64,000 bases of DNA, taken from the NCBI GenBank assembly GCA_021735655.1, contig JAIPGM010000002.1, positions 128,001 through 192,000 on the forward strand, read 5' to 3'. Position numbers and translations under genes: made by a program. The stretch comes from Candidatus Omnitrophota bacterium. Its GTDB lineage: Bacteria > Omnitrophota > Gorgyraeia > Duberdicusellales > 4484-171. Under the pieces are notes generated by a model that was given only the letters and a program-made list of their open reading frames with translations, searched no databases and was not told the DNA's origin. This document shows, in pieces, positions 5,708 through 7,845 of the stretch. The stretch's first letter is position 1, and each line of letters starts with the position of its first letter.

Positions 5708-6781
5708 ATGCAAATAGGGGTTATGGATTTTAAAAATAGTAAAAAGACTTTTACTTTAATTGAAATCGTTATTATTATCGTTATTATCGCTGTCTTAGCG
5801 ACCATAATGATTCCGGTTTATCTTAATACTATCGAAAAATCAAAGCGGACAGCTTGTGAAACAAATCAAAGAGTTCTCCTTGGAGCCTTAGAGTTGTACT
5901 CACTTGAGCATACAGTCTTACCGGCTTCCTTGAGTCAGTTGCCAGATAAGTATTACAAACAGGCCTGGGCAAAAGTTTTATCTGAGCCGGGAAGCTGGAA
6001 GGTAAGGTTGGCTTATGCGATTTCTGAGTTTAGTTTTCAGCAGTTAGCCTATGCGGCTAGTGATTGGTTGCATCAATACATCTCGCCGGCCGGACCAGTG
6101 TGTCCTTCTGATCGTACTCCGCCGCCGATGGACTATTCATATGGTTTAAGTTTTCAGTTTTTTGAAGCAACTGCATTTCAATTTAGAAATGCTAATCCTG
6201 ATGATCTTGTAATTGCCGATAGCAATGATCCAATTTTTTGGCGTCCCGAACCTAGGCATAAAAGTTATGGTATTTTCGGTGCTAATAGATACGGTATTAG
6301 TATTACTCGAGGAAATAAAATTATTTATTATCCGATAAAAAATGGCCAAGGCGATGAAGATGCTGCCGAGGGTATGGGAGGAGAGACCAACCGTTCTGCG
6401 GTTAGCAAACATGAGTGTAAGGTTAAGCGTTGCGCTACTCTTTGGCAAACAGATGATTGGGGTAGCTGTGTTCTTAATTGTGAATCAGCGGGGCCTATTG
6501 AGGATGATGAAGGCGAAAATGTGAACGAAGGCGTGGATGAAGACCATTGCTTTATTGCCACAGCTGCCTATGGGACGGTAATGGCTCAAGATGTAAGAGT
6601 GCTTTCTGAGTTTCGTGATAAGTATCTTTTAAATAATAGTTTTGGGAAAAGGTTTGTAGGAGTTTACTATCGGCTTAGTCCACCAGCTGCAGACTACATA
6701 CGAACTAGGCCGTATCTTAGGAGAGCTGTAAGGGCAATGCTGAAACCAGTGGTTTGGTTAGTAGGGCTCAGTCAAGAGTAA
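5708..6781 (+). CDS. Pilin-like secreted protein: a class III (prepilin) N-terminus, a Cys-containing middle region and a 77-aa CFIATAAYG-type C-terminal domain.
   Basis: KKTFTLIEIVIIIVIIAVLATI prepilin leader and hydrophobic helix. The more likely start is the internal ATG at 5723 (MDFKN...), which matches its paralog. The C-terminal domain CFIATAAYG...FRD.YLL...GR.FV.YY..SPP.A begins at 6548. Confidence 0.6.
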   Translation: MQIGVMDFKNSKKTFTLIEIVIIIVIIAVLATIMIPVYLNTIEKSKRTACETNQRVLLGALELYSLEHTVLPASLSQLPDKYYKQAWAKVLSEPGSWKVRLAYAISEFSFQQLAYAASDWLHQYISPAGPVCPSDRTPPPMDYSYGLSFQFFEATAFQFRNANPDDLVIADSNDPIFWRPEPRHKSYGIFGANRYGISITRGNKIIYYPIKNGQGDEDAAEGMGGETNRSAVSKHECKVKRCATLWQTDDWGSCVLNCESAGPIEDDEGENVNEGVDEDHCFIATAAYGTVMAQDVRVLSEFRDKYLLNNSFGKRFVGVYYRLSPPAADYIRTRPYLRRAVRAMLKPVVWLVGLSQE

Positions 6782-6840
6782 TTTGTATTTTTAGGGGTGT
6801 ATATTTGATAGGGGAGAGTATCTAGACATAAGGAGGAACT

Positions 6841-7845
6841 ATGGATTTTAAAAAGGGTAAAAAAGTATTTACTTTAATTGAGATTGTAATTGTTGTTGTT
6901 ATTGTCGCTGTTTTGGCGACTATAACGATCCCAACTTATTTTAATACTATCGAAAAATCAAAGCGGACAGCTTGCGAAACAAACCAACGAGTTCTCCTCG
7001 GAGCCTTAGAGATGTACTCACTTGAGCATACAGTTTTACCGGCTTCCTTGAGTCAGTTGCCAGATAAGTATTATAAGCAGGCTTGGGCAAAAGTTTTATC
7101 TGAGCCGGGAAGTTGGAAGGTAAGGTTGGCTTATGCGATTTCTGAGTTTAGTTTTCAGCAGTTAGCCTATGCGGCTAGTGATTGGTTACATCAATACATC
7201 TCGCCGGCCGGACCAGTGTGTCCTTCTGATCGCACTCCGCCGCCGATGGACTATTCATATGGTTTAAGTTTTCAGTTTGCTGGAGCAACTGCGTTTCAAT
7301 TTAGAGATGCTAACTCGAAAGATATTGTGATTGCTGATAGTGATGACTCAATTTTTTGGCGCCCTGAACCCAGGCATAAAAGTTATAGCATTTTTGGTAC
7401 CACCAACTATGCTACCAGCGTTACTCGAGGAAATGAAGTTGTCTATTATCCGATAAGAGATGGTCAAGGTGATGAAGATGTTGCCGAGGATATGGGAGGA
7501 GAGGCTGACCGTTCTGCGGTTAGTAAACATGAGTGTAAGGTTGACCATTGTGCCCATCTTTGGCAAACAGCTGGTTGGGATAGCTGTATTAGTAATTGCG
7601 AGCTAGAGGAACCCAATGCTAGTGAGTTTATAGAGCCTGATACTGGTCCTGCAGGCACTGATCTTCCTCCGGGTTCGATTGATCCTGCTCAGCAAAATAG
7701 CAGAGGTAACTGTAATTCCGCCTGTTCACATAATCGCAATGTTTGTAAACAAGCCTGTCCGAATAATCAGGGAGAATGTAGGAAGGCATGTGAAGATAGG
7801 CGCGATGAGTGTAGGAATACGTGTAATACTGAGCATCAGAATTAA
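6841..7845 (+). CDS. Pilin-like paralog of 5708..6781 with an alternative Cys-rich C-terminus (13 Cys in the last 55 aa).
   Basis: Strong RBS AAGGAGG. The N-terminal roughly 250 aa are nearly identical to the upstream gene. The sequences diverge after about nt 7600 into a CNSACSHNRNVCKQACPNNQGECRKACEDRRDECRNTC tail. Confidence 0.6.
   Translation: MDFKKGKKVFTLIEIVIVVVIVAVLATITIPTYFNTIEKSKRTACETNQRVLLGALEMYSLEHTVLPASLSQLPDKYYKQAWAKVLSEPGSWKVRLAYAISEFSFQQLAYAASDWLHQYISPAGPVCPSDRTPPPMDYSYGLSFQFAGATAFQFRDANSKDIVIADSDDSIFWRPEPRHKSYSIFGTTNYATSVTRGNEVVYYPIRDGQGDEDVAEDMGGEADRSAVSKHECKVDHCAHLWQTAGWDSCISNCELEEPNASEFIEPDTGPAGTDLPPGSIDPAQQNSRGNCNSACSHNRNVCKQACPNNQGECRKACEDRRDECRNTCNTEHQN

Follow-up and report, generated by a model that had tools for sequence, protein, structure and literature searches.

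Among pilin paralogs it is a familiar pattern that the N-termini are conserved, the C-termini vary and the copies undergo gene conversion, and for the prepilin peptidases that process such proteins a Gly residue at position −1 is nearly obligatory. DUF1559 proteins (PF07596), marked by an H-X9-DG motif, are encoded in multiple copies in Planctomycetes and Verrucomicrobia. In Pseudomonas aeruginosa, the pilin inventory is said to be sensed by the pair PilA–PilS (Kilmury and Burrows, 2016). Small Tim proteins and plant alpha-hairpinins carry CX3C motifs on antiparallel helices, placed for pairwise disulfides. These systems are compared here with two adjacent genes, called A and B, from the metagenome-assembled genome of an uncultured Candidatus Omnitrophota bacterium (contig JAIPGM010000002.1, positions 128,001 to 192,000). 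This stretch of 64,000 nucleotides was analysed as a whole and is referred to as the window; all positions given below are counted from its first letter.

The Omnitrophota are a phylum of ultra-small, probably host-dependent bacteria (PMC10066038). As judged from sequence, the A/B pair is a product of ordinary paralog evolution and not a cassette-switching system. New with respect to annotation and the searchable literature are a distinct family whose members, some hundreds in number, go under the label "hypothetical protein" and have a head domain of their own and a non-canonical cleavage site; the invariable pairing of this family with a gene for a CHASE2/HD-GYP protein (9 of the 9 loci examined); and the rare fusion of a pilin-like protein with the uncharacterised CFI-box-CTERM domain.

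The gene pair and its direct repeat

The following features were assigned to the pair and to its shared part (dS, synonymous divergence per site):

5723-6781, plus strand: gene A, 352 amino acids; pilin-like core, four-Cys helical hairpin, linker and CFI-box-CTERM domain (AlphaFold2 model)
6841-7845, plus strand: gene B, 334 amino acids; core and four-Cys hairpin as in A, linker and eight-Cys helical hairpin tail (AlphaFold2 model)
5723-6504, plus strand: direct repeat, copy 1 (shared part of A); 86.1% identical to 6841-7622, gapless
6841-7622, plus strand: direct repeat, copy 2 (shared part of B); DNA alignment to 5723-6504
5825-6163, plus strand: probable recent gene-conversion tract, paired with 6943-7281; 95.9% identical, dS 0.17

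Both products are labelled "hypothetical protein" at NCBI (A, K9L86_01755, 352 amino acids; B, K9L86_01760). The open reading frame of A opens at 5708; the true start is probably the Met6 codon at 5723, because this codon is in register with the start of B and the NCBI protein has 352 amino acids. Each of the two is a complete gene with its own ribosome-binding site and start codon, and no terminator-like site was found in 5200-8300.

The two proteins share 81% identity over 269 amino acids (BLASTP, E=2e-158). At the DNA level the repeat copies comprise 782 nucleotides at an offset of 1118 nucleotides and differ by 109 mismatches; an identity of 85-90% had been given in a preliminary description of this DNA, and the measured value falls within that range. 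Over the 96 nucleotides past the repeat the identity falls to 27%, which is the random level. The abrupt divergence that had been described near 6480 and 7600 is thereby confirmed, and the breakpoint is placed at about 6505 in A and 7623 in B. In both AlphaFold2 models a disordered linker is predicted to start at this point (residues 261-277 in A, 258-281 in B), which makes the breakpoint a domain boundary. The modularity proposed earlier is likewise borne out, in that the similarity stops exactly at the predicted linker and the tails of the family are hypervariable on a conserved core of about 200 amino acids. The alignments establish A and B as diverged tandem duplicates of a gene of the pilin superfamily.

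Duplication and gene conversion

The identity of the repeat copies is a mosaic, with 78% at 5723-5824, 95.9% at 5825-6163 and 79% at 6164-6504. Correspondingly, the dS between A and B amounts to 0.78 for codons 1-34, 0.17 for codons 35-147 and 0.60 for codons 148-260, and third positions are mismatched in 10 of the 113 codons of the central tract versus 44 of 147 outside it (segment test, p=2.5e-5). A permutation test on the longest run was not significant (p=0.15). Over the first 150 codons, paralogs within one genome are 78-97% identical in nucleotides, whereas the window and the related locus L001 share 63-70%. The low central dS, taken with N-terminal halves that are more alike among paralogs than among orthologs, therefore argues for gene conversion, and the substitution pattern establishes that the shared part of A and B was partially converted, with codons 35-147 as the probable latest tract. 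The duplication itself is old to judge from the overall dS of 0.4, and the conversion tract would be the more recent event.

Codons 150-258 behave differently from the first 150: here A and B both group with L1c (72-75%), the gene of L001 that carries a CFI-box, while the two Cys-tail genes of that locus are more distant (about 50%). This grouping makes B a copy of the CFI-box lineage with a replaced end. Neither a decayed CFI-box downstream of B nor DNA homology of the B tail to the Cys tails of L001 was found. By these measures concerted evolution homogenises the common part and does not shuffle the tails. The earlier suggestion that the long repeat supports recombination between the copies stands insofar as sequence was indeed exchanged, according to both dS and the third-position test; it does not extend to the tails, since the conversion concerned the shared part only.

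Family head and relationship to pilins

The N-terminal parts and a four-Cys hairpin that lies shortly ahead of the breakpoint are shared by A and B:

5723-5908, plus strand: A, leader MDFKNSKKT, FTLIE motif and long hydrophobic alpha-1 helix (helix 12-62); class-III-signal-like, Thr at −1
6841-7026, plus strand: B, leader MDFKKGKKV, FTLIE motif and alpha-1 helix; Val at −1
6392-6487 (A) and 7513-7605 (B), plus strand: shared four-Cys helix-loop-helix (C-x4-C...C-x3-C), helices 224-240 and 246-255 (AlphaFold2)

The N-termini read MDFKNSKKT/FTLIEIVIIIVIIAVLATIMIP in A and MDFKKGKKV/FTLIEIVIVVVIVAVLATITIP in B, and thus contain the short basic leader, the FTLIE motif and the hydrophobic stretch of the pilin type. 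The Gly residue at −1 of the prepilin peptidase site is absent, its place being taken by Thr in A and by Val in B. Family-wide, this position is held by Ser (31), Ala (28), Gly (14), Asn (13), Val (7), His (6), Thr (5) and others; the three canonical pilins encoded in the window have Gly before FTLIE.

NCBIfam profiles (GspG, ComGC, PilA and PpdD) match A and B only in the N-terminal helix, and the PDB profile matches (GspG, geopilin and PilA) are likewise confined to alpha-1. Beyond alpha-1, no relative of the head (about 150 amino acids) was found by sequence in Pfam or PDB. The scores for N_methyl (PF07963) were 19.9 bits for A and 12.2 bits for B versus a cutoff of 21.2, and that for TIGR02532 was 16.0 bits for B versus 16.3. 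The gspG equivalog model TIGR01710 gave 41.5 and 44.5 bits versus 88.85, over profile positions 2-62 of 134 only. No match of A or B to DUF1559/SBP_bac_10 (PF07596) was obtained at E≤1, and a Foldseek search of the B model against PDB returned nothing below E=2.9.

When a profile of the family core was run against 1.84 billion representatives, 204 cluster representatives were retrieved at E≤1e-30, nearly all of them matching over about 200 amino acids; the named members are Candidatus Omnitrophica. By these searches the family comprises at least 204 cluster representatives; it is unannotated and apparently restricted to Omnitrophota. Its head of about 150 amino acids is characterised by a near-invariant Cys pair and by SYG, D and RH motifs. 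In an alignment of 100 members, A111, P128, Y140 and H179 are invariant, and F10, T11, E14, C45, N48, C127, S139, D166 and R178 are conserved in at least 90%. Scanning of 100 members gave matches to TIGR01710 gspG and to ComGC in all 100, to N_methyl in 89 (E≤0.1), to T2SSG in 25 and to DUF1559 in 8. We take these proteins for an unnamed pilin-superfamily branch with a distant relationship to GspG and to DUF1559.

A search of metagenome contigs with the profile of the trimmed core yielded one truncated syntenic locus (L089), and by exact look-up of B no other contig was found. A scan of genome contigs, which fixed on general pilin patterns of the N-terminus, returned ordinary pilins and locus L004, which was rejected as a family relative, the match being due only to a CFI-box in an S8 peptidase.

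C-terminal tails

The two tails were delimited as follows:

6548-6754, plus strand: CFI-box-CTERM domain of A, residues 276-344 of 352; short form without a terminal transmembrane anchor; NF041770 match
7684-7839, plus strand: eight-Cys tail of B, CX3C-X6-CX3C-PNNQGE-CX3C-X6-CX3C; predicted antiparallel alpha-hairpin

The last 77 amino acids of A, counted from the Cys of CFIATAAYG, had rightly been singled out in the preliminary description: they hold a full-length match to the NCBIfam profile NF041770 (CFI_box_CTERM; 94.8 bits versus a cutoff of 40, profile positions 1-69 of 69) that ends 8 residues before the stop. B does not match NF041770. The domain of A is modelled by AlphaFold2 as a small helical bundle at a predicted local distance difference test (pLDDT) score of 85-93. 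About 100 other carriers of the CFI-box were collected by homology search; they are unrelated proteins of the secreted type with Flg_new, FN3, peptidase M10, SGNH or RCC1 domains, in which the box follows a Gly/Ser-rich linker and is present either in the short form, as in A, or in a long form that adds a transmembrane helix and an Arg-rich end. No publication on the domain was found in searches of the literature.

A long-form example is the S8 peptidase of L004 (3886-6309 of that locus, 807 amino acids, with a transmembrane helix and a KRRRH end), encoded in an unrelated metagenome-assembled genome of high G+C content. Its gene overlaps the start of a type II secretion system (T2SS) operon led by gspG (6306-6755), a single case of a CFI-box protein encoded beside pseudopilin genes.

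The tail of B reads CNSAC-SHNRNV-CKQAC-PNNQGE-CRKAC-EDRRDE-CRNTC. Its last 55 amino acids contain 8 Cys residues (291, 295, 302, 306, 313, 317, 324 and 328), not the 13 counted in the preliminary description, and the whole protein contains 14. The eight tail residues fall into four pairs placed in mirror symmetry on either side of the PNNQG loop, with residue numbers adding up to 619 in each pair. AlphaFold2 places residues 282-305 and 311-333 in two antiparallel helices (pLDDT 73-86), and the tail is accordingly predicted to be a doubled helical hairpin of the twin-CX3C type. A knottin-like appearance had been noted for it earlier; a knottin or inhibitor cystine knot was rejected in view of the all-alpha prediction with two helices, the helix-loop-helix arrangement of the mirrored pairs and the CX3C/X6 spacing.

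After the core, the family tails are hypervariable. At least 4 Cys residues are present in 38 of 161, and the others are rich in Lys, in Asp/Glu or in Gly/Ser/Pro, of low complexity, or coiled coils. The CFI-box occurs among about 160 family representatives only in P0001 and P0003, that is, in A and its ortholog. The exact eight-Cys framework of B recurs in two distant members (P0156 and P0165), and twin-CX3C motifs were found in 23 of 162, so that the tail of B is the one typical of the family and the CFI-box of A the unusual one. An extreme elaboration is seen in P0148 (590 amino acids), the tail of which comprises 380 amino acids with 30 Cys residues in tandem repeats of the WCKDKDGxFYQS type. 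Array sizes likewise vary, with one copy in L084, L086 and L090-L092, two in the window, three in L001 and four, with four unrelated tails, in L087.

Genomic context

Downstream of the pair the window contains the following:

8059-10329, plus strand: CHASE2 / transmembrane / HD-GYP gene; Pfam CHASE2 134 bits, HD_5 143 bits; HHExxDGxGYP motif
13721-32182, plus strand: machine resembling a T2SS or a type IV pilus (T4P), with secretin, MshEN-type ATPase, three canonical G/FTLIE pilins, minor pilins, LamG giants, PilC and PilM

In every locus examined (the window, L001, L084/85, L086, L087/88, L090, L091 and L092), a CHASE2/HD-GYP gene directly follows the family gene or array, at a distance of 0-213 nucleotides. 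In L090 the downstream gene is truncated and its product is 38% identical to the CHASE2 protein of the window. The pairing is kept in L087, although the genes upstream differ there. Immediately after the CHASE2 gene, L084 and L091 have genes for a class-I aminoacyl-tRNA synthetase of 874-898 amino acids and for QRPTase (then UvrB in L084), and the pilus cluster is missing from this position; in the window the synthetase (875 amino acids), QRPTase and UvrB genes lie at 37157-42625. From this arrangement the stretch of about 27 kb at 10513-37061, which includes the T2SS/T4P-like cluster, appears to be either an insertion in the window or a deletion in L084 and L091. By this comparison, the conserved unit is the pilin-like/CHASE2 pair.

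CHASE2–HD-GYP proteins exist, and none has been characterised experimentally (bioRxiv 10.1101/2021.11.05.467447). The ATPase of the cluster (16846-18567) contains a Pfam MshEN domain. Upstream of this domain it contains two tandem motifs of 24 residues, KLGEILIGQKVITDDILRQALSDQ and RLGEILIERGWVRAEEINIALAHQ, which we take to resemble the MshEN motif for binding of cyclic di-GMP (c-di-GMP). MshEN is known to be a c-di-GMP-binding module (PMC12448109), and the ATPase is therefore a plausible downstream target. No prepilin peptidase gene was seen in the window.

Further observations concern the surroundings. The G+C content is 0.43-0.45 at 6001-8000 (the pilin-like pair), 26001-28000 and 32001-36000 (the LamG giants), as compared with 0.36-0.39 in most of the window. 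The two LamG-repeat giants (25623-28586, 987 amino acids; 32250-37061, 1603 amino acids) have in common a pilin-like hydrophobic N-terminus and the C-terminal end KPVSGTWGER; a tract of about 200 amino acids is about 90% identical between them within a background of 44%, which looks like a second partial gene conversion in the window. A second HD-GYP protein, with cytoplasmic PAS domains, is encoded at 45569-46921. A conserved protein of about 830 amino acids with a C-terminal DUF5684 membrane domain (11179-13689 in the window, 14169-16652 in L001) is encoded beyond the CHASE2 gene on its downstream side, with one or two small genes in between. In the distant locus L095 (1867-5450), the gene for a CHASE2 histidine kinase starts on the last base of an upstream gene for a FecR/LysM periplasmic protein, a hint that genes for CHASE2 sensors may often be preceded by a partner gene for a periplasmic protein, the type of which varies.

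Proposed role and alternatives

A fibre or adhesin had been proposed in the preliminary description. This is unsupported, the sole conserved functional clue being the downstream CHASE2/HD-GYP gene. From the gene neighbourhood only, A and B would be membrane-anchored periplasmic partners or inputs of the CHASE2/HD-GYP c-di-GMP module, a proposal to which we lend about half of our credence. The alpha-1 helix would hold both proteins in the inner membrane, and their heads and tails would reach into the periplasm, where the proteins would serve the CHASE2/HD-GYP sensor as accessory or input partners. The c-di-GMP output of the sensor could plausibly control the adjacent pilus or secretion machine with its MshEN-type ATPase, and the differing tails would provide each paralog with a different periplasmic contact. 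As for its evolution, the pair descends from a lineage that bore the CFI-box; A has kept this domain, and in B the end after the linker is a predicted Cys-stapled alpha-hairpin of the kind typical of the family. A more specific version, which we regard as rather unlikely, would have the pilin-like proteins act as the protein input or co-receptor of CHASE2: the HD-GYP phosphodiesterase would be gated through their membrane helix and their periplasmic parts, head and tail alike, and the cell would read the state of its pilin pool, of its envelope or of surface contact as a c-di-GMP signal that controls the MshEN-type ATPase. If this were true, a first defined partner would be available for CHASE2, a sensor domain without a known ligand, and a pilin family would have a role outside filaments. 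Should the pairing reflect a physical interaction, it would offer a testable entry to CHASE2 signalling and bear on the control of surface appendages by c-di-GMP in Omnitrophota.

Several points weigh against this account of the locus. The pilin motif residues F1, T2 and E5 are more than 90% conserved in the 100 members, as true filament subunits need, and the T2SS/T4P-like cluster lies just 6 kb from A and B. Pilin-like neighbours are missing from three distant CHASE2 loci, the products of which have cyclase or kinase outputs; a general link of CHASE2 to pilins beyond this lineage was therefore rejected, and the pairing is regarded as lineage-specific. The AlphaFold2 models were built on shallow alignments (17 and 47 sequences) and reach a mean pLDDT of about 75. 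In addition, the low dS of the central tract could in part be due to constraint at the nucleotide level.

Alternatively, A and B could be minor pilins or pseudopilins of the adjacent machine, cleaved by a prepilin peptidase of relaxed specificity, built into the filament and displaying their tails as alternative adhesive or anchoring modules, in line with the modular fibre or adhesin of the preliminary description. We consider this possible, though on the improbable side, given that Thr and Val stand at −1 in A and B as against Gly in the canonical pilins of the same genome, that both proteins score below the curated cutoffs of N_methyl and gspG, and that the CHASE2/HD-GYP pairing persists in L084, L091 and L087, which have no pilus cluster next to the pair.

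Two further alternatives concern the tails. Programmed variation, in which recombination between the 782-nucleotide repeats, or silent cassettes, would switch the expressed C-terminal module in the manner of pilE/pilS or a shufflon, could draw on a direct repeat that is long and highly identical, on the evident past exchange of sequence and on array sizes that range from 1 to 4 copies among genomes; it is nevertheless hardly credible here. Both copies are complete genes, no further silent or partial copies were detected by tblastn in the 64-kb window, no inverted repeats were found in 5200-8300, and no recombinase turned up among the annotated neighbouring genes. A crossover between the direct repeats would only delete 1118 nucleotides and leave a B-like gene, without a swap of tails, and the observed exchange, on an old duplication, homogenises the common part. 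With these negatives from the window (cassettes), from 5200-8300 (inverted repeats) and from the annotated neighbours (recombinase), a shufflon or pilin antigenic variation was rejected for A and B, and the exchangeable C-terminal cassettes of the preliminary description are therefore unsupported. That the Cys-rich tail of B is a metal-binding or post-translationally modified module, such as a target of the radical S-adenosylmethionine (SAM) or ribosomally synthesised and post-translationally modified peptide type, and not a disulfide-stapled hairpin, appears very doubtful. A Cys-Xaa-Xaa-Xaa radical SAM target (TIGR04117) was rejected, as B scores 16 bits where the cutoff lies at 50 and has no radical SAM gene beside it; the genes flanking the pair are UPF0047 and CHASE2/HD-GYP. 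The head that precedes the tail is exported and pilin-like and has a near-invariant Cys pair, typical of disulfide-bonded pilins, and the Cys residues of the tail, in strict mirror symmetry on both sides of the loop, are placed as expected for two helices stapled pair by pair.

Comparison with described systems

With regard to signalling, the proposed partnership of A and B with the CHASE2/HD-GYP protein would resemble PilA–PilS of P. aeruginosa in that a membrane-resident pilin helix would be the input to a membrane sensor controlling pilus functions. The parallel is no more than an analogy: the sensing protein here is a phosphodiesterase of the CHASE2/HD-GYP type instead of a histidine kinase, and the interaction is putative.

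With GspG/EpsG and type IV pilins, A and B have in common the basic leader, FTLIE with Glu5, an alpha-1 helix of about 50 residues and a Cys pair in a head that is probably of the alpha/beta type; sequence profiles match them over alpha-1, and EpsG is the best structural neighbour. They differ in Thr or Val at −1, in a head without a sequence relative in PDB, in scores below every curated cutoff, in their long C-terminal extensions and in a conserved partner that is a CHASE2/HD-GYP gene and not a pilus operon. In DUF1559 proteins, too, a pilin-type N-terminus precedes a head that has no assigned function, and 8 of the 100 family members match this profile weakly (best E=1.5e-6). However, the RH motif of the A/B family is not followed by the H-X9-DG spacing, and neither CHASE2 linkage nor variable tails are described for DUF1559.

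As to the tails, the last 69-77 amino acids of A correspond to the full CFI-box-CTERM profile, with the invariant Cys after a Gly/Asp/Ser-rich linker, whereas the usual carriers are large secreted proteins, many of them with an extra terminal transmembrane helix and an Arg-rich end, and A is a pilin-like carrier. The hairpin of B has no sequence homology to small Tim proteins or plant alpha-hairpinins and is the C-terminal appendage of a bacterial pilin-like protein, its disulfides being putative; the likeness lies in the CX3C motifs on two antiparallel helices, of which B is predicted to have a doubled version.

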